Numbered from the stretch's first letter, positions 129 through 33,558 are shown. The stretch: DNA of 54,404 nt from Gemmatimonadaceae bacterium (GCA_039924445.1 JBDTAW010000032.1:1-54404); one strand, 5' to 3'. A program made the numbers and translations. Notes: generated by a model not told the origin, from the sequence alone.

Positions 129-199
129 GTCTAACCGTCGCGGCCTCACGCCCGAAATCAGCGGAGCGCGTAGCGCGTCCACTGATTGAGTTGTTAGAC
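129..199. repeat. attC-like site (candidate)
   Basis: GTCTAAC at 129..135 and its exact reverse complement GTTAGAC at 193..199, total 71 bp. Contains an internal AATCAGCGG / CCACTGATT pairing. Lies 13 nt downstream of the rhodanese stop. Confidence 0.55.
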
Positions 200-211
200 C
201 GCTGGCCGCCG

Positions 212-592
212 CTAAACGTTTATCGGTTTACCGGCCGCTTGCCAGGCTTTGAACCCGCCATCGAGGTGCGCCACGTTCGTGTACCCAAGCTCACGCAGAG
301 CCAAAATGGCAAGGGCAGACCGACCACCCGATGCGCAATACAGGATGACTCGGCCGTCTGGGTTGAGCTCTGCCTTGTGGTATGGACTGCTTGGATCGGC
401 ATAGAACTCAAGCATTCCCCGTGAGGCGTGTACGGCGCCCGCGATCGTGCCACTAGACAACTCCGGGGCGTCGCGAATATCCACGAGCGTGACGTTGCCC
501 GCGGCTATCTCGGCCTGCACCTGATCTGGCGTGAGATTTTCGATGCGACTCTTTGCATCCTGAACAAGTTGTGTTGCTGTCTTACCTGTCAT
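212..592 (-). CDS. Rhodanese-domain sulfurtransferase
   Basis: 126 aa ORF with the rhodanese active-site loop CASGGRS and the typical single-domain length. Confidence 0.85.
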   Translation of the reverse strand: MTGKTATQLVQDAKSRIENLTPDQVQAEIAAGNVTLVDIRDAPELSSGTIAGAVHASRGMLEFYADPSSPYHKAELNPDGRVILYCASGGRSALAILALRELGYTNVAHLDGGFKAWQAAGKPINV

Positions 593-622
593 AAGTCACC
601 TCCGATTGGTGTTCCCAAAGCG

Positions 623-727
623 GTCTAACGGGTATTAGACTGCAACGCTCTGCTTCAGTAGCGATGCATGATTGCGGCGATTCCTCATCGAGCACCATCC
701 AGTCGCCCGCTACGGATAACGTTAAAC
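623..727. repeat. attC-like site (candidate; alternatively only the 18-nt palindrome 623..640)
   Basis: GTCTAAC at 623..629 and GTTAAAC at 721..727 (105 bp). The flanks GTCTAACGGGTAT and ATAACGTTAAAC are partly complementary. The left core lies 31 nt upstream of the rhodanese start. Confidence 0.4.
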
Positions 728-793
728 GTCAACTTGCCGGCGAAGCGCCAGCCGCGCGGGAAAATTCAGGACGTTGCGGAAATGCTGCGAATG

Positions 794-867
794 TAGTAAC
801 GAGAGTAACGAGGATCAGATCTTGCGCGATAGTAACGAGCGAGTAACGAGGGTCAGATCTTGCGTGA
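794..867. repeat. Tandem duplication (36 + 38 nt) of the palindrome left arm plus its flank
   Basis: TAGTAACGAGAGTAACGAGGATCAGATCTTGCGCGA (794..829) is followed by TAGTAACGAGCGAGTAACGAGGGTCAGATCTTGCGTGA (830..867). Confidence 0.8.
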
Positions 868-906
868 TACACATGCGCAGTTTGCGCCATGCAAGATCTG
901 ACCCCG
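850..906. repeat. REP-like palindromic element, copy 1
   Basis: GGGTCAGATCTTGC ... GCAAGATCTGACCCC inverted arms, downstream of the VOC gene stop at 964. Same sequence family as 2535..2592 and 4221..4274. Confidence 0.8.
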
Positions 907-963
907 AACACCGACGCGCAGCGCCGTCCGCTGCAACCGGCTATTGGGCAACGCCGTTCCAGT

Positions 964-1359
964 TCACCGCCGAACTTCGCTCATGAGCGCAAGAAGGTTT
1001 TCGTCCGGATCGCGGAAGAAAGCCATCCACAATTCGTGGTCGGGTAGTGTTGCTATGAGATGAGGTTTTGCTTCAAAGACGACGCCTCGTGCCGACAATG
1101 CTTCGAAAGCCGTATCGAGGTCTGCGACCCTGTAGTAGATGACTGAACTGTAATTCCCGGATTGCGCTTTGGCGGGAGCATCCAGCATGAGCCGGACGCC
1201 GGCGCAGTCAAAGAAGCCGAGGCCCGGCGGGGCCTGAAAGAGAAATCGCATTCCCAGAGTGTCGCGGTAAAAGGCGACTGCCCGTTCGATATCACTGACC
1301 GGGACGGAAATTTGCCCGATCTGGTTCAGTTCACAGTTGGCTGTCACAGAGCCGGTCAT
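964..1359 (-). CDS. VOC family (glyoxalase/bleomycin resistance/dioxygenase) protein
   Basis: 131 aa. N-terminal motif VPVSDIERAVAFYRDTLGM and overall VOC-like pattern. GGAGG RBS upstream of the start. Confidence 0.8.
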   Translation of the reverse strand: MTGSVTANCELNQIGQISVPVSDIERAVAFYRDTLGMRFLFQAPPGLGFFDCAGVRLMLDAPAKAQSGNYSSVIYYRVADLDTAFEALSARGVVFEAKPHLIATLPDHELWMAFFRDPDENLLALMSEVRR

Positions 1360-1384
1360 GGAGGTTTCCTCCCGTTAGGTATCG

Positions 1385-1448
1385 GTCCACCCAATGCTGA
1401 ATATACGTGACTCGCGGACGACGAGTCCGCTTGATTGAACGGTTGGAC
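1385..1448. repeat. attC-like site (candidate)
   Basis: Left end GTCCACC (one mismatch to RYYYAAC), right end GTTGGAC. Central perfect hairpin GCGGAC-N5-GTCCGC. Lies 17 nt downstream of the cupin stop. The right flank TTGAACGGTTGGACTGC is shared with the 3539..3623 site. Confidence 0.45.
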
Positions 1449-1464
1449 TGCAAGTGACGCACCC

Positions 1465-2028
1465 TTATTGCCGCGTGCTACGTAACTCAAGAACTTTCTG
1501 TGGGTCGATGCGGATAATCGTGTACACGATGTGCGAAGTTGTGATGTCGACGAAGCCGTGCGGTACGTGCGGCGGAATAATGACGATGTCGCCGGGAACT
1601 ACATGACGCGATGTTCCTCCAACGACGGACTGACCCGAGGAACTCGGGCCGATCTCACCCACGACTGCGGCAGCGGTCAGAGGTTTTGGCGACTTCAACG
1701 CCCCGCCCGTAACAAGAACTCCTTCACCTTCGATTATCTGATAAACCTCGGCGACATCGTCATGAATCAGCGCATCGGGCAGCATGCGACCGTCGATTTT
1801 GGTCCGACGAACCACGGCGAGCCCGACGTTGTACTTTGCCTCTATCGGTACTACACGGAGTGGAGAATCTGAAAACGCACCGGTGTTGCTTTTTTCTACC
1901 GCTGCTTTGATTTCTACTGCGCTAACGAAAGTCGCAGGAGTGGCTGTAGCTTGGGTTGCCGCATCATATTTTGCCGAGGCCCCGGTCGATACGGCGAGTG
2001 CTGCCATTACAAGCCAATTAGCCCTCAT
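1465..2028 (-). CDS. Secreted cupin-domain protein
   Basis: Start chosen at MRANWLVMAALAVSTGASA (signal peptide) with an AAGGAG RBS. The C-terminal PGDIVIIPPHVPHGF is a cupin motif. The longer ORF reaching 2163 has no RBS. Confidence 0.7.
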   Translation of the reverse strand: MRANWLVMAALAVSTGASAKYDAATQATATPATFVSAVEIKAAVEKSNTGAFSDSPLRVVPIEAKYNVGLAVVRRTKIDGRMLPDALIHDDVAEVYQIIEGEGVLVTGGALKSPKPLTAAAVVGEIGPSSSGQSVVGGTSRHVVPGDIVIIPPHVPHGFVDITTSHIVYTIIRIDPQKVLELRSTRQ

Positions 2029-2141
2029 AAGCCTACTCCTTGCTGTGGTGACAGACTCCCGCCCGCTGGCGCAGCCAGCGGACGGTCGGCTGGAATGAAC
2101 TGTTGACCTCGCCTCATTTATAGTCCGGTCCGTTCCGCACT

Positions 2142-2466
2142 TCAGCCACTCCCCACTCCCCACTCCCCGTTGACCTTGGTGAACAAGAGGAAGTACGGCG
2201 TTCGTGGTCCTGAACCTGATACCGGGGCGGAGTCTACATCAACAAACAAAAAATTGCCCATCATCAAGACGTGCAACGGCATCCGCGTGCATAGTCGAAA
2301 CCATCCCGGCTACATCGTCTTTCCGTGCGGATGATGCATGCTTTTCTATGAGTAATCTGATCGTTTGCACGTCAGCGGGAGTTTCAGAAACCGTCTGAGC
2401 GCTCGCAGTCATGGCTCCGAGGGCCACTAAAAGCGAAAAACTGCAAATCGCGACGTGTTTTTCCAT
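2142..2466 (-). pseudogene. SnoaL/DUF4440-like secreted protein, apparently frameshifted at a T6 run
   Basis: The 75-codon ORF 2239..2466 (signal peptide, then LIEKHASSARKDDVAGMVSTMHADAV) stops just after a T6 run (plus-strand A6 at 2248..2253). A shifted frame continues with PYFLLFTKVNGEWGV, which resembles a DUF4440 C-terminus, to a stop at 2142. Confidence 0.45.
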
Positions 2467-2534
2467 GCTTTTCTCCACGAGAATCGTTCGAGGTGTGAAG
2501 CATCTTTGATGGGCTACTCTACTGGAATACTCCA

Positions 2535-2592
2535 GGGTCAGATCTTGCGTGATGCACACGCGCGCAATGTGCATCACGCAAGATCTGACCCC
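2535..2592. repeat. REP-like palindromic element, copy 2 (most perfect)
   Basis: GGGTCAGATCTTGCGTGATGCACA-loop-TGTGCATCACGCAAGATCTGACCCC, a 24-bp perfect stem. Lies immediately downstream of the VOC gene stop at 2602. Confidence 0.85.
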
Positions 2593-2601
2593 GAGTTCCC
2601 T

Positions 2602-3000
2602 TCAATCGTGCAGCAGACGATAGAATTGCAGGCTATTGCGACTTGGATCACGGAGATGAAACTCTCTCGTGCCCCACGGTGTGTCAGCAGGTACGGCCCA
2701 TGGGCTACCGTCGCTCGTATCCGGACGGACCGCTCCGCTTTCACGAAATTCCTCAAAGATCGCGTCGACATCACTGACCATGAAGCGGAATGCAGGCCGA
2801 TCGATCGGATATGCCCACTGCTCTGCATCGGCCCACTGAATATGCAACTGCACTTCATCTCGCTGTATGCCAACGTACTTCGGATTCTTCAGGTCGTCTC
2901 GAAAGACAACGACGAACCCGAGAGTCTCGTAGAACCGTACTACTTCACTTACATCGCGAGCACCAAGCACAGGATGCACGGCTTGAAGAGAAGCACTCAT
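2602..3000 (-). CDS. VOC family protein (bleomycin-resistance-like)
   Basis: 132 aa. HPVLGARDVSEVVRFYETLGF and a C-terminal WGTREFHLRDPSRNSL pattern, typical of the glyoxalase/bleomycin-resistance fold. Confidence 0.75.
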   Translation of the reverse strand: MSASLQAVHPVLGARDVSEVVRFYETLGFVVVFRDDLKNPKYVGIQRDEVQLHIQWADAEQWAYPIDRPAFRFMVSDVDAIFEEFRESGAVRPDTSDGSPWAVPADTPWGTREFHLRDPSRNSLQFYRLLHD

Positions 3001-3538
3001 TATACGCCTCCGGAAGATGTCGTCCGTTTATGCGTTCCGATGCAGATATGTTCGTCGCAGGCGCACGCTTGAATGAATTGTCAGGCGGGAGCTCGAGCGC
3101 CTGGAAGACGAATGGAACCAAGCGTTTTGCGTGACGCATGTACTCAAAGTACTCGGGATACGCGGTGACGAGGAACTGTTCCTCAACCACCATTCGCAGC
3201 AACAGCCCCGCGGTTACTGCTATTGCCAGCGAGACAGAAACTACGGTTGGCATCTCCACCTGGCCAGCCCACACGAAATAGATGATGGAGGCATATATGG
3301 GATGCCGCCAATAGCGGTACGGCCCAGTTGTAACGAGGCCGCCGCTGGTTGTGTTGGTAGTTGCGTGAAGGCTGCGAAGACCAAACGTCGAGCGGGCCCA
3401 GAGCATGAGAAGAACGGCACATGCTTGAACTGCTAACAGCAGTTAGTTGGTGGCGAACAGATGATGAATGACAAAAAGCCACACCATGCCCGCAACTGCC
3501 ACCAGGAGCCCGCCAAGTGAAAGCGTTTTTCTTAGCAA
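2945..3538 (-). pseudogene. Isoprenylcysteine carboxyl methyltransferase (ICMT/PEMT) family protein interrupted by an in-frame TAA
   Basis: The 153-aa ORF has the motif LVTTGPYRYWRHPIYASIIYFVWAG. The same frame upstream reads LRKTLSLGGLLVAVAGMVWLFVIHHLFATN-TAA-LLLAVQACAVLL, a hydrophobic N-terminal extension broken by a TAA at 3443..3445. A possible TTG start is at 3538. The 3' end overlaps the VOC gene by 56 nt. Confidence 0.5.
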
Positions 3539-3623
3539 GTCCGATCCTCGGTTGAATCGCCTTGCTGCCTACGGCTGGAGCTAAGCGGCGGCGAAGCCGT
3601 CCGCGTTGAACGGATAGTTGGAC
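3539..3623. repeat. attC-like site (candidate)
   Basis: The right end GTTGAACGGATAGTTGGACTGC closely resembles the right end of the 1385..1448 site. The left arm GTCCGATCCTCGGTTGAATCG is partly complementary to it. Lies 18 nt downstream of the stop of the 3641..4144 gene. Confidence 0.4.
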
Positions 3624-3640
3624 TGCTGAGCGTCGCACGT

Positions 3641-4144
3641 TCATTGGCAGCCGCTGCCGCCGCTACAACTCGTTGTTACATAAAGCTCGGAGCGAATACG
3701 CCACTTCCCATCTACAAGCTGCCACATCACGAGGTAGCGCCCGCCATATGTCAGAACCTGGCCTTTAGCGCGCTCGCGCCACTGCCAAATTCCCGTTTCC
3801 GCCGCATCCTTTGGGCCCCCCGTGGCAACCTCAATTCTATTCGGTGTGCGACGGCCGGATACGAACCTGTTGCCGTTGAAAATTTCCTTGAAGCCCTCGA
3901 CGTTCTGATCTCCGCCGACCCACGAACTTCCGTCTGACCCTGTGGTACTGACGTCCGGAAGCCAATACTTGGCTGTTGTCTCCAGATCCCTATTGGTGAG
4001 CGCAGCATTAAGTTCGGTCCTGGCCGACCGAATGGCTGCTTCGGCCGCGCTCATGTGCATCTGCTTTGCCGCCGCAGCCGGCGCTTGACCGAACACTAGC
4101 GTTGATGTCGCTAAAGAGCAGGCAACACACAGCATCTTGAGCAT
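3641..4144 (-). CDS. Secreted DUF4440/SnoaL-like (NTF2 fold) protein
   Basis: Start at MLKMLCVACSLATSTLVFGQA (signal peptide). C-terminal GRYLVMWQLVDGKWRIRSE is typical of the DUF4440/NTF2-like fold. The longer ORF reaching 4348 runs through the palindromic repeat and is not credible. Confidence 0.7.
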   Translation of the reverse strand: MLKMLCVACSLATSTLVFGQAPAAAAKQMHMSAAEAAIRSARTELNAALTNRDLETTAKYWLPDVSTTGSDGSSWVGGDQNVEGFKEIFNGNRFVSGRRTPNRIEVATGGPKDAAETGIWQWRERAKGQVLTYGGRYLVMWQLVDGKWRIRSELYVTTSCSGGSGCQ

Positions 4145-4220
4145 GGGCGCCCCTGGTTTTTTGAACCACACAATTGTGAAATATGTCGAGCGATCTAACG
4201 CGCAAGTTATAACAAATTTA

Positions 4221-4274
4221 GGGTCAGCTCTTGCGTGATGGACACGCAATGTGCGCCGCGCAGGATCTGACCCC
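4221..4274. repeat. REP-like palindromic element, copy 3 (degenerate)
   Basis: GGGTCAGCTCTTGCGTGATGGACA ... GCGCAGGATCTGACCCC, followed by the same GAGTTCCC tail as copy 2. Confidence 0.75.
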
Positions 4275-4329
4275 GAGTTCCCCGTAATCCTGCCGGTTTG
4301 GATCGTGCAATTTCTGACCCTGGTTCGCC

Positions 4330-4539
4330 CGCGACGAGCGGCCCCCACTCGTGCACGCTTGGAGTCGACATGGGCGGACCGAATCGAGAGCCACGGATTT
4401 CAATCTGATGCTGCCACGCGAAGCTCGCCTGCGGCTCGTCGGCGGCCGTATCCGGGAGGACAAACGCGTTCGGCGACGGGACATCGGTGCCGTTGACTAT
4501 GAGCTGCCCGTGACGCATGAGGAGCGTATCGCCGGCGAG
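4330..4539 (-). pseudogene. Signal peptidase I (S26)-like internal fragment
   Basis: LAGDTLLMRHGQLIVNG ... FAWQHQ ... HEWGPLV resembles the middle of bacterial LepB. The catalytic Ser/Lys regions and the C-terminal GDNRxxSxDSR box are absent. The ORF runs into repeat copy 3. Confidence 0.35.
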
Positions 4540-4678
4540 CGACGCACGTGGAACAGGAGTTGTGCGTGTCGCAGCGATGCGTGCCGCTCGATTCCGTCGA
4601 GACTTGCCCATTCGTGATGCCTCCAGATCGAGTGCGAACTTGACTCTTCCTAACGATAGTGAAAAAACTGCGATGCCC

Positions 4679-4733
4679 GCCTAACGCGTGAGCTCAGCCG
4701 ACGGCAAGCCGCGTAGCGGGTTGACGGTCGGCG
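4679..4733. repeat. attC-like / inverted repeat (weak candidate)
   Basis: GCCTAAC at 4679..4685. Imperfect palindrome GCCGACGGCAAGC (4697..4709) / GGTTGACGGTCGGC (4719..4732). The right arm resembles TTGAACGGTTGGAC of the other sites. Lies 40 nt downstream of the DUF4345 stop. Confidence 0.3.
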
Positions 4734-4772
4734 GCAGCGAAATGTCAGGCGCCCGCCCCCGAAGAGCCGAAC

Positions 4773-5159
4773 TCATCTGCTTGCGTAGTGTGCACCGGCC
4801 AGGACAAACGGCAGCACCAATTCAGGGATGAGATAGCCAAGCCAGACGACGCGCGGCTCAGGCAAACCAACCTTTGCGATAGAGACCAAACGCCCGACGC
4901 CGGCGAGTAGAACGCCTAGAGCCAGCAAATAGACAAGAAAGCCCTGCTGGCGGACGGTGACACCGGCCCATATGCAGATGAAGCCGGTTGACAAATAAAC
5001 GCCGGCCATGAATCTGTGAACGTTGTCGAGGCGCGGCGATGTATCGGGTTGCCCGAGATAGAACTGCAACGAGCCACCGACGATTGAGATAGCGGAGATC
5101 AGAAAGAGGCACACCTGAACGATGTGCTGGCTGATGTTCATCGAAGTTTCAATCGGCAT
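4773..5159 (-). CDS. DUF4345-like small membrane protein
   Basis: 128 aa with four predicted hydrophobic helices. The family call is from memory of the motif pattern. GAGGAG RBS. Confidence 0.55.
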   Translation of the reverse strand: MPIETSMNISQHIVQVCLFLISAISIVGGSLQFYLGQPDTSPRLDNVHRFMAGVYLSTGFICIWAGVTVRQQGFLVYLLALGVLLAGVGRLVSIAKVGLPEPRVVWLGYLIPELVLPFVLAGAHYASR

Positions 5160-5176
5160 GGCGGCTCCTCTTCAAC

Positions 5177-5277
5177 GCCTAATGCCCAGCGCTCAGTTGC
5201 GGGCGCGTCAAATAAGAAGCGAATGCGAAGCGTTCGCAAGTCCTCAGATCGCCCGTCTGCTGCAGCGTTCGTTAGCT
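5177..5277. repeat. attC-like site (candidate)
   Basis: GCCTAAT at 5177..5183 and GTTAGCT at 5271..5277 (101 bp). The arms AGCGCTCAG..CGGGCG and CGCCCG..CTGCAGCGTT are partly complementary. Contains a central GCGAA/TTCGC hairpin. The left core lies 18 nt upstream of the DUF4345 start. Confidence 0.35.
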
Positions 5278-5464
5278 AGCACACGAAACGGAACCCAACC
5301 GACGAGGTCTATGTTTCTCGACGGAGCGTCGAACTACGTGGCTTCGATCAGATCGAAGAACATCGAGTACGTCAGGGCGCGCAAACGAATCGAACAAGCG
5401 CCGCGCTGCGGACGGATCAACACAACAGAGCGTAAGCCGATCCGATCGCGAAGCCCTGCCCTCC

Positions 5465-5884
5465 TCACCCCCGCGCACCAACGCCACCTTCGCCCCCCGT
5501 CGCCACACCAGGCGACAGCATTGCGAACGAACACACCATAGCCAGGAGCCCGAGTCCATACCACTGGGCCTGGCCGGTGATGTAAAAGATTATGACGCCG
5601 ATCAACGCCGCACCCTCGCCGACGGCCCACCCGACGAGTAGCAACGAGGCTCGGCGCTGCGGCTCTCGTTCCCGTCCCACGCGTCCTTTCAGTACCGCGG
5701 CGATCGACACTGCCATAATCGAGTATGCCACCAGTACGTATTCAACAGTGATCGGGAGCACTCCGGGTTTCCAGTTCGGCTTTCGGTGAACGACCAGAAC
5801 GACGGCGCCGAAAAGCAATACGCCTGTCATCAGGAAAAGGCGGATCAGTTGCAATGGCTGAGGCCGTGGATTCGCACGGGGCAT
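5465..5884 (-). CDS. Hypothetical membrane protein
   Basis: Start taken at MPRANPRPQ. Four hydrophobic segments and no recognisable motif. Confidence 0.5.
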
Positions 5885-5973
5885 GGGTTCTCTCAGGTCG
5901 GCGGACACAGAGCAGGAATAGCGGACTAACGCCCAGCTCAACTGCAAGGGCGTGCAATAATCTGCACGCGAAG

Positions 5974-6162
5974 GATGGATTCCGCACTACGGGTCAAGTC
6001 CGACGGCACCACCTGCAGGAGTCCGTTCTACAGCGCGCAGTAAAATCCGCAGCGCGGCGGAGCGGCGTATCGAAGCTAGTGACGTATCACGGTTTCCGGC
6101 ATTCATTCGCAACAAACCTTCTGGCCGATGAATATGACATCCGGAAGATACAGGAGTCGCTC
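5974..6162 (+). pseudogene. intI: Integron integrase (IntI, tyrosine recombinase) C-terminal fragment
   Basis: [63 protein letters not shown] matches the conserved IntI block (RRHH..QRAVK..H-x-x-RHSFAT..GYDIRT[IV]QELLGH). No similarity upstream of about 5974. The LGH...Y catalytic tyrosine region is missing after 6162. Confidence 0.65.
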
Positions 6163-6318
6163 GTGTCTTATGCTGCGAGGCCAGCAGGATAAGACGGCGA
6201 CGATCTGATCGAGAAAATGCGGAACTGCTCGGCACGGAAGCAGAATATCCTTGCGAATGCGATTGGCGTGGGCATCTTATACTGCATGCTCGCAGCGTTT
6301 TTGAAGCAGGGCTCTGCA

Positions 6319-6336
6319 GTCTAAAACGGGTTAGAC
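6319..6336. repeat. Short core palindrome GTCTAAAACGGGTTAGAC
   Basis: Near-identical in design to GTCTAACGGGTATTAGAC at 623..640: both attC-type cores are present but separated by only a few nt. Confidence 0.3.
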
Positions 6337-6373
6337 CGCGCACGAGCCTCCATCGTCTTCGACCCTTTTACGC

Positions 6374-6589
6374 ATGCTAAAGCCTCAGACATGTCCCGAG
6401 TGCCACACTTCGATGGAAGAGGGCGTGACCCTCGACCTCGAAAGCCGCCGGACGCAGACGTGGCTTCAAGGCCCCGTCGAAGAGAAACGGTTGACCGGAA
6501 TCAAAACGCGCGGGAAGGAACTCCTGCGGGTGGTCAGCTATCGGTGTCCCAAGTGCGGGTACCTGAAGACGTTCGCGCCGCCGGTCTAA
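6374..6589 (+). CDS. Hypothetical zinc-ribbon protein
   Basis: 71 aa with CPEC near the N-terminus and CPKC near the C-terminus. No obvious RBS. Confidence 0.4.
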   Translation: MLKPQTCPECHTSMEEGVTLDLESRRTQTWLQGPVEEKRLTGIKTRGKELLRVVSYRCPKCGYLKTFAPPV

Positions 6590-6615
6590 CGAACGCTGAA
6601 GCTGACACGTTAGCC
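6584..6615. repeat. Short attC-core-like inverted repeat
   Basis: GTCTAACG (6584..) and CGTTAGCC (..6615) are separated by 16 nt. The zinc-ribbon ORF stop codon TAA lies inside the GTCTAAC core. Confidence 0.3.
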
Positions 6616-6690
6616 AGCACCCGCGCACTGCTTCGTGATTCAGCCATCAGCCGGTGACGATTCATGATCGTTCTACAAGGTTTCAGCGCC

Positions 6691-7173
6691 ATGTCACGAA
6701 ACGTCTCCGCGATTGGTGCCGCATTCATAGCCCTCACAGCTTGCACTCCAAAGGTGAACCTGATGAGCAACGATGACTTGACAATTTTTGCAAATCGATA
6801 TGCGGCAGCCTGGAGCGGCAAGGATCCTGTCAAGTTTGCTTCCTTCTACGATGAGAATGGCTCGCTAATAGTGAACGGTGCGGCGTCGGTCGGGCGTGCG
6901 GCAATCACGGCGACGGCTCGCGCATACATGGCGGCGTTTCCTGATATGGTCGTCAGGCTCGATTCGCTGCACCAGGAAAAGGATCAGACCATTTTTCACT
7001 GGACGTGGACAGGAACAAATACCGGACCGGGTGGGACAGGCAAGGCGGTCAACTTGCGCGGCTACGAGCGGTGGACGATCGGACCCAATGGCCTCATCGC
7101 TAAGTCGGACGGGCATTTCGACAATGATGAGTACCAGCGTCAGCTGAAGGGAACCTTCCAGCCGAATCCGTGA
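6691..7173 (+). CDS. SnoaL-like (NTF2 fold) lipoprotein
   Basis: MSRNVSAIGAAFIALTAC lipobox. ANRYAAAWSGKDPVKFASFYDENG and AYMAAFPDM are typical of SnoaL-like cyclase/ester-cyclase proteins. Confidence 0.7.
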   Translation: MSRNVSAIGAAFIALTACTPKVNLMSNDDLTIFANRYAAAWSGKDPVKFASFYDENGSLIVNGAASVGRAAITATARAYMAAFPDMVVRLDSLHQEKDQTIFHWTWTGTNTGPGGTGKAVNLRGYERWTIGPNGLIAKSDGHFDNDEYQRQLKGTFQPNP

Positions 7174-33251: not shown

Positions 33252-33524
33252 ATGAACAAGAAGCAGAATTCACCGAGATATCAGGCGCACTCTGCGCCAA
33301 CGACACAGAAGTCGCCGTTGGACGAGGCGCGGGACGAGCTCTTTCAGCACATCATGCGGTGCGGCGTTATTGGCGCCGAACTGGAGCACCAGGCGGAGTG
33401 GTTTGATGCAACGATCACTTACTTCGCTGGACGCTACCCAGAGCTGACGAAGCTTGAGCTTACGCAGCTCCGCACGTTGGGTGAGAGATTCGCCCAACCG
33501 CTGAAGACAAAGCAAGCTGTTTGA
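33252..33524 (+). CDS. Hypothetical protein
   Basis: 90-aa ORF followed directly by a strong terminator. No motif recognised. Confidence 0.45.
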   Translation: MNKKQNSPRYQAHSAPTTQKSPLDEARDELFQHIMRCGVIGAELEHQAEWFDATITYFAGRYPELTKLELTQLRTLGERFAQPLKTKQAV

Positions 33525-33526
33525 CG

Positions 33527-33558
33527 AACGGGCGCCCGAGGGCGCCCGTTGAGTTTTC
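33527..33558 (+). terminator. Rho-independent terminator
   Basis: AACGGGCGCC / GGCGCCCGTT 10-bp stem, 4-nt loop, then GAGTTTT. Confidence 0.7.

Follow-up and report, generated by a model that had tools for sequence, protein, structure and literature searches.

The interval from position 129 to 6336 of a 54,404-nt stretch of DNA from a Gemmatimonadaceae bacterium (GCA_039924445.1, JBDTAW010000032.1:1-54404; the whole stretch is referred to below as the window), continuing to about 7200, is very probably a degenerate chromosomal integron array carrying a remnant of its integrase gene, intI, in a Gemmatimonadaceae-like genome. An integrase fragment, three well-supported attC recombination sites and a number of broken cassette genes bear out the preliminary description of this DNA, which had proposed an integron that lost its integrase and was left with a decaying cassette array. 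The locus corresponds to a known category, the cluster of attC sites lacking integrase (CALIN), here with an adjacent intI pseudogene.

An active IntI recombines the folded bottom strands of attC sites with attI or with each other, and in this way promoterless cassettes are inserted, excised and reordered. At the present locus deletions have trimmed intI to 58 codons, leaving no recombinase encoded there, and the array would now be frozen unless it is served in trans by another IntI of the same genome. With selection for recombination gone, both sites and cargo would be eroding. Three attCs are still recognisable, others have become one-armed or collapsed to two R boxes, and a family of palindromic repeats has spread among the cassettes.

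Integrase fragment and well-supported attC sites

The stretch 5974-6162 matches the integron integrase profile of NCBIfam (TIGR02249) with 76.7 bits, compared with 41.5 for XerD and 40.8 for XerC, a lead of 35 bits. The match spans model positions 228-286 of 315 (59/315 positions, ~19% of the profile); for PF00589 the E-value is 6e-10, with profile positions 101-154 of 172 (~31%) covered. The closest database proteins carry IntI-specific motifs. An IntI-like fragment on the strand opposite the array had been described before, with the proviso that a better fit to XerC/XerD-type recombinases, together with a lack of attC matches, would speak against an integron; the fragment is on the plus strand and the scores favour IntI. 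When four full-length IntI sequences from related metagenomic loci were used as tblastn queries, they retrieved 5989-6162 and nothing else in the 54-kb window or the extended contig. Unlike a complete integron, the window thus holds only residues ~248-305 of ~334, with no other piece in 54 kb. A continuation of the gene 3' of 6162 in another frame was considered and rejected, since 21-65 of 300 shuffled sequences scored equally. Deletions have left 58 internal codons of the gene, which therefore cannot supply a recombinase.

Rfam holds no attC family, and a scan with its models gave only spurious miRNA matches, to the palindromic repeat described below; attC sites were searched for with purpose-made covariance models instead. 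The seed consisted of bona fide attCs from gammaproteobacterial chromosomal integrons, located through the IntI fragment. RNAalifold found no structure in the raw MAFFT alignment of these sites, and the structure was therefore set by hand and verified by covariation: the R and L helices covary strongly (86.9% of cells paired vs 64% in shuffles) and none of 500 shuffles reached the observed score. A model of trimmed attC ends joined by GAAA (R1) capped the loop length, found short attCs only and was discarded. Strict pairing of RYYYAAC with GTTRRRY followed by folding was likewise abandoned, being too strict even on real integrons; it returned 129-199 alone in the array, together with an unrelated hairpin at 33492-33554. 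The model built from 39 gammaproteobacterial attCs (R2) detects attCs at 24-35 bits in a planctomycete, and it found 34 attCs, distributed over 20 metagenomic loci with an IntI that shares 55-68% identity with the fragment. These 34 sites, with no window sequence included, make up the model used here (R3), which was run without filters on both strands of all 54 kb.

Exactly three matches with E<1e-4 were obtained, at 143-199, 4679-4750 and 5177-5277 (Table 1). All of them lie inside the array on the plus strand, as expected of minus-strand cassettes, whose bottom strand this is, and none falls in the other 48 kb; apart from these and a marginal match at 3567, nothing scored below E 0.5. Cores of the TAAC/GTTA type are clustered in the array region: GTCTAAC is present at 129, 623 and 6584 and just once more in 54 kb, and GTTAGAC at 193 and 6330 alone. 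Six attC sites had been listed in the preliminary description, which named the lack of any covariance-model hit at those places, combined with a better Xer fit of the fragment, as grounds for rejecting an integron. Three of the six are significant in the independent model, one is marginal and two (623-727 and 1385-1448) are unsupported. Among the significant ones the bounds move from 129-199 to 143-199 and from 4679-4733 to 4679-4750, and 5177-5277 was exact.

The three sites align full-length to the 16-bp model, with the arrangement of R box, unpaired central spacer and L box, paired L boxes and a bulged bottom-strand base. Like canonical attCs, they share one hairpin architecture with a 7-bp R box and a bulged L box at the usual distance from GTT, they measure 57-101 nt and their orientation relative to the open reading frames (ORFs) is fixed. 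They differ from canonical sites in that the conserved AAC/GTT is not kept at both ends, one triplet being altered in each (TCAC at 146-149, GTC at 4744-4746, AAT at 5181-5183); several other sites of the array keep one arm only. In 143-199 the R box (143-149) reads GCCTCAC, with TAAC changed to TCAC, and the central stem GGAGCGC/GCGCGTCC resembles that of bona fide attCs. A perfect GTCTAAC at 129-135, 14 nt outside this R box, forms a perfect core pair with 193-199, but with a 20-nt spacer. One R box of 4679-4750 is GTCAGGC, a variant that is also found in the orthologous attC of related contigs, where the orthologue scores 35.2 bits (L146, L149 and L150). The R box of 5177-5277 (5177-5183) is GCCTAAT, an AAC to AAT change, and reads GCCTAAC in L149. 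The GTC deviation is thus common to relatives and the AAT deviation is specific to this contig. In folding, which had been suggested as a check, most candidates do no better than shuffled sequences; 4679-4750 reaches z -2.5, and 5177-5277 forms stems of its R and L boxes, the bulges lying on the 3' arm.

CALINs are defined by at least two covariance-model attCs less than 4 kb apart and by the lack of a functional integron integrase nearby. With R3 as a proxy model, 4679-4750 and 5177-5277 are 427 nt apart, 143-199 is a third site, and no functional integrase is found in the vicinity.

Eroded sites and cassette genes

The small unrelated minus-strand ORFs that had been taken for the array run from 129 to ~5950 according to ORF calls on the window, and gene calls and Pfam matches uphold this part of the preliminary description. 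The features of the locus are collected in Table 1. The DUF4345 ORF is the sole unit flanked by two significant attCs.

Table 1. Sites, repeats and genes of the array and its right-hand continuation, with palindrome copies in related contigs. Bit scores refer to the R3 model unless stated otherwise.
Feature	Position	Strand	Evidence or remarks
Last attC of array (rhodanese cassette)	143-199	-	30.9 bits, E 1.3e-5 over whole window
Rhodanese ORF, 126 aa	212-592	-	PF00581, E 4.9e-23
Site B of preliminary description, not validated as attC	623-727	-	no match >7.4 bits
Palindromic repeat, copy 1	812-904		partial arm and full hairpin
VOC/glyoxalase ORF, 131 aa	964-1359	-	PF00903, E 1.3e-15
Degenerate attC (site C)	1385-1448	-	repeat family D4; no match; fold z -0.7
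Cupin ORF, 187 aa	1465-2028	-	length as called on identical contig
75-aa ORF, signal-peptide-like N-terminus	2239-2466	-	no Pfam or NCBIfam match
Palindromic repeat, copy 2	2535-2591		perfect 24-bp stem; fold -31.1 kcal/mol, z -11
Second VOC ORF, 132 aa	2602-3000	-	PF00903, E 5.4e-9
PEMT/ICMT methyltransferase pseudogene	2945-3538	-	in-frame TAA at 3443-3445
Degenerate attC (site D, re-bounded from 3539-3623)	3567-3623	-	match 3567-3681, 15.6 bits
DUF4440/SnoaL-like ORF, 167 aa	3641-4144	-	PF14534, E 1.8e-14
Collapsed attC	4193-4212	-	two R boxes 6 nt apart (ATCTAAC GCGCAA GTTATAA); R2/R3 local matches 7-10 bits
Signal peptidase I (S26) remnant, 134-aa ORF	4207-4611	-	comparison with orthologue (L146)
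Palindromic repeat, copy 3	4221-4320		hairpin and extra arm; replaces 3' end of S26 gene
attC of DUF4345 cassette	4679-4750	-	30.2 bits, E 1.9e-5; fold z -2.5
DUF4345 ORF, 128 aa	4773-5159	-	PF14248, E 2e-13
attC of membrane-protein cassette	5177-5277	-	28.7 bits, E 4.6e-5
Membrane-protein ORF, 139 aa	5465-5884	-	weak DUF2157 match
Truncated attC	5924-5986	-	only R'-proximal half kept, fused to IntI fragment
intI pseudogene fragment	5989-6162	+	58 codons, residues ~248-305 of 334-aa IntI; TIGR02249, tblastn
attC-like site (alternative: attI)	6180-6336	+ (top strand)	ends in GCAGTCTAAAACGG-GTTAGAC
Zn-ribbon ORF, 71 aa, cassette-like	6374-6589	+	stop codon inside GTCTAAC
Collapsed attC	6584-6615	+	R''-L'' (GTCTAAC GAACG CTGAAGCTGAC) fused to GTTAGCC; 12.5 bits, E 0.09 over 8 kb
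SnoaL-like ORF, 169 aa	6664-7173	+	PF12680, E 9e-17
Palindrome copies in relatives	L146 4997-5064, 7263-7342, 10606-10687; L150 1192-1269, 1965-2034; L149 11853-11932, 13264-13337

Several of the other attC candidates are degenerate, truncated or collapsed. Little is left of 623-727 beyond its inner end at 620-658, which has a 2R-1R or simple-site-like form (GCAGTCTAA-N5-GTTAGAC). In 1385-1448 only the arm GAGTCCGCTTGATTGAACGGTTGGAC is attC-like and its partner has decayed (R box GTCCACC). The folds of these two candidates do not exceed those of shuffled sequences in an attC-like way, and their earlier listing as attCs is not upheld. The 1385-1448 arm belongs to a 21-nt repeat family (D4) that has further members at 182-202 and 3606-3626; the extended right ends noted in the preliminary description (TTGA..GTTGGACTGC) are real and correspond to this family. 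On visual inspection, both 1385-1448 and 3567-3623 have one well-preserved arm (GTCCGC..TTGA..N5..GTTGGAC) and one that is decayed. The site previously placed at 3539-3623 is better bounded at 3567-3623 and its R3 support is marginal (E 0.1 over the window, 0.014 over 8 kb). Comparison with attCs of L142 and L101 indicates that its apex AAGCGGCGG-CGAA-GCCGTCCGC is intact, its R box lacks one base (GCCT-AC) and its L boxes are mismatched.

Two attCs have collapsed to 20-32 nt (4193-4212 and 6584-6615). The latter belongs to the same subfamily as 5255-5277, with 90% complementarity to 5255-5275 over 21 nt. Homology to the related contig L146 ends at window position 5986, within an attC of that contig (L146 3199-3322), so that a truncated attC is joined directly to the left side of the IntI fragment. 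The GACTAACGCCCAGCTCA of this truncated site agrees with the 5' consensus of the model.

At least two cassette genes are broken. When the PEMT/ICMT methyltransferase gene is read through its stop codon, the Pfam match grows from profile positions 40-103 to 7-103. The signal peptidase remnant retains residues 1-26 and ~126-199 of an intact 264-aa orthologue, having a 312-nt internal deletion (blastn to L146), and it also lacks the 3' end of its gene. It is 80% identical over 87 aa to the S26 protein of L146 (BLASTP), which is a full PF10502 member. Pfam and NCBIfam profiles alone gave no match to this ORF, and it is the intact orthologue that confirms its earlier identification as a LepB remnant. 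The earlier label 'SnoaL-like' for the ORF at 2239-2466 is unsupported: the product has neither a Pfam or NCBIfam match nor similarity to the DUF4440 protein.

The PEMT/ICMT frame overlaps the first 56 nt of the VOC gene downstream of it (2945-3000), no attC separates them, and both apparently belong to a single cassette. On the plus strand the SnoaL ORF at 6664-7173 may be a second cassette in that direction; no attC was recognisable after it in the R3 search.

Related contigs, geometry and competing explanations

Contigs L146-L151, reached through the DUF4345 protein, are 92-95% identical to the window in shared DNA. In them DUF4345 is flanked by attCs of 35-40 bits, followed by an intact peptidase gene, and no IntI was found within 8 kb of DUF4345. 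The membrane-protein cassette, which adjoins DUF4345 in the window, has 91.5% nucleotide identity to L146 3260-3873 and lies 4 kb upstream in that contig, with other cassettes between. A cassette order that differs between close relatives would be as expected of an integron array, and the occurrence of the same cassettes in other orders, with intact genes, indicates that the array was probably reshuffled at the cassette level fairly recently. A comparison of the window cassette proteins with 140 fetched integron loci found none of them there. Homologues of the DUF4345 protein at 78-98% identity number in the thousands, and some are named from metagenome-assembled genomes (MAGs) of Burkholderiales and Rhodocyclales; set against a Gemmatimonadaceae-like host, this distribution suggests horizontal transfer of the cassette. 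In L149, just upstream of the shared DUF4345 cassette, the segment 1168-7016 carries an NgoFVII-like endonuclease with an Eco57I-type methylase and a 698-aa reverse-transcriptase protein, and no small cassettes.

The divergent geometry of canonical integrons, which the preliminary description had ascribed to the locus, is possible. The fragment does lie on the strand opposite the array, but the geometry is not secure because plus-strand cassette-like units follow to the right of the fragment and the cassettes of most close IntI relatives are downstream of intI, on the same strand as the gene. Of 20 related integrons in which the model detected attCs, 14 are arranged in this way, and 'inverted' integrons of this kind are known from Treponema and others (PMC4889954, PMC3607928). 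The fragment could accordingly derive from an inverted-type integron whose partners are the Zn-ribbon and SnoaL units of the plus strand and, in the role of attI, 6180-6336, the minus-strand array being a separate or rearranged block. In six relatives a YYTAA-N5-GTTAGRC simple site stands 246-335 nt after the IntI match, with an ORF behind it; in the window the motif is at +156 and next comes the Zn-ribbon ORF, which begins 38 nt after the 6180-6336 site and is itself followed by a collapsed attC. Nevertheless this origin seems rather doubtful. To the right of the fragment there are the attC-like 3' part in 6180-6336 and the collapsed attC at 6584-6615, and no significant attC. The 6180-6336 site is 78-83% identical to inter-cassette DNA of L146, L150 and L149, contigs without intI nearby, and at L150 7554-7645 this DNA is an R3 attC of 18.4 bits, which suggests attC over attI; its end at 6316-6336 has the simple-site form and is placed where IntI relatives have one, yet it is homologous to inter-cassette DNA elsewhere. 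Furthermore, the main array lies on the opposite side and the opposite strand from that of inverted-type integrons, L137, among the best IntI relatives (67%), has the canonical geometry, and identity over 58 residues is too little to assign the fragment to a clade. Among the soil and sediment integrons L066-L145 (IntI 55-68% identical) a YYTAA-N5-GTTAGRC motif is often seen ~250-330 nt after the RHSFAT region.

The array may, alternatively, not be dead: some of its attCs could be recombined in trans by an intact IntI elsewhere in the genome, the locus being a satellite array beside a dead intI. This we judge unlikely. The changed cassette order relative to contigs 92-95% identical would suit it, as would the GTCAGGC R-box variant, which is kept in orthologous attCs and may be tolerated, and half of the known CALINs are in genomes that encode IntI elsewhere; but the broken genes, the collapsed and half attCs and the window-specific AAC to AAT change point to relaxed selection, and no intact intI occurs in the 54 kb or within 8 kb of the related arrays. 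It is scarcely credible that there is no integron at all and that a variable island of small genes with repetitive extragenic palindromic (REP)-like elements happens to include a piece of a recombinase of phage or Xer type. Palindromes rather than attCs are indeed the most conspicuous repeats, most candidate sites fold no better than shuffles and the generic gammaproteobacterial model is not significant. Against this stand the 35-bit lead of the IntI profile over the Xer profiles, the three R3 matches at E ~1e-5, on the right strand and confined to this 6 kb, and the orthologous attCs that flank the same cassette in other contigs.

Several points weigh against the interpretation as a decayed integron array. 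The attC calls rest on proxy models and not on the attC model or the intI_Cterm profile of IntegronFinder, and the E-values of these models are rough owing to a short calibration. The model of gammaproteobacterial attCs alone (R2) gives the array sites only ~10-11 bits, E ~1; attC detection here needed a model from the clade of the IntI itself, lineage-specific attC models being standard practice in the literature. Two of the six sites listed earlier have no model support. The altered triplets are not proven to entail loss of function, because one of the deviations is shared with relatives. Neither an attI nor a cassette promoter (Pc) was recognised with confidence, and under the canonical reading the region of the Pc is deleted. 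Finally, cassette-type units point away from the IntI fragment on both sides, and no single inversion or deletion was found that would produce this two-sided arrangement. A model of inversion that predicts a relic of the IntI C-terminus by the left end of the array was discarded, since tblastn found no such relic in the extended contig. The segment 620-658 is an inverted copy of 6301-6339 (32/38 identity); this 38-nt inverted repeat, of the form RYYYAAC-N5-GTTRRRY, brackets a 5.6-kb block with most cassettes and the IntI fragment, and it could serve as an inversion substrate.

As a degenerate array with an intI remnant, the locus is a new, unusually eroded example of a known fate of integrons. 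CALINs are common (PMC4889954), and 15 of 279 had an intI pseudogene nearby in the survey of Cury et al. (2016; PMC4889954), where deletion of intI is a proposed origin. The locus resembles these cases in having attC-bounded cassettes without a functional integrase and an IntI remnant within a few kb; it differs in that the remnant has 58 codons, ~19% of TIGR02249, and the attCs are partly decayed. The cut-off for intI pseudogenes in that study was >50% profile coverage. Since the fragment remains below it (PF00589 ~31%, TIGR02249 59/315), the pipeline would probably have missed it. A classic case is that of Xanthomonas (Gillings et al., summarised in bioRxiv 10.1101/2025.06.18.660453), where intI was inactivated by deletions, stops or frameshifts and the arrays are frozen and vary among lineages. 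Both are sedentary chromosomal integrons at a fixed locus with an inactivated intI, whereas the present one is Gemmatimonadota-like, far more eroded (half or collapsed attCs, broken cargo) and has units on both sides of the remnant.

The locus thus offers a well-resolved case of late integron decay in a poorly sampled soil phylum, and leaves the general understanding of integrons unchanged. Fossils of this kind slip past attC models of the generic type, as the attCs did here, and past common pseudogene criteria, the fragment falling under the coverage cut-off; remnants in soil lineages are therefore probably under-counted. The related contigs, in which these cassettes are ordered differently, could help to date and reconstruct the inactivation.

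Palindromic repeats and chromosomal setting

A palindromic element of ~75 nt with asymmetric conserved flanks is present in three copies in the array and in none in the other 48 kb. The preliminary description had mentioned a repeat element between some genes and inverted repeats; it is real, and constitutes a separate palindromic family rather than a part of the attCs, since it has no AAC...GTT arrangement. The second copy begins 10 nt after the VOC stop codon. Related contigs contain at least seven further independent copies, and in L149 the palindrome is present also beyond the last detectable attC. All copies are oriented as the cassettes are and most directly follow a stop codon. The element is absent from the integron loci of the IntI relatives and was seen only in contigs of the same lineage. 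Since the copies are co-oriented and stand mostly after stop codons where an attC is missing, the palindrome (GGGAGTTCGGGGTCAGATCTTGCG...CGCAAGATCTGACCCTAAATTTGC) could be a miniature inverted-repeat transposable element (MITE) that homes to or replaces attCs, or a second type of cassette-end site used by a non-IntI enzyme, in either case tied to Gemmatimonadota cassette arrays and not a generic REP; we hold this to be very improbable.

The left limit of the array lies at ~129, the next gene encoding a class-V aminotransferase (Aminotran_5), as seen in an identical metagenomic contig that reaches 680 nt past the left edge of the window. From ~8 kb rightward the DNA is ordinary chromosome, with genes for a BNR/sortilin protein, aconitase, acetyl-CoA synthetase and peptidases. 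Proteins named from Gemmatimonadaceae MAGs share 88-90% identity with this aconitase, and the host is therefore taken, by protein similarity, to be Gemmatimonadota-like; integrons have already been reported in Gemmatimonadota in the literature. The G+C content is flat across the region (~0.56-0.60). Outside the array, 33492-33554 is a G+C-rich perfect hairpin (stem GGGCGCCC..GGGCGCCC) with RYYYAAC/GTTRRRY-like ends, which resembles an ordinary hairpin of the terminator type rather than an attC.

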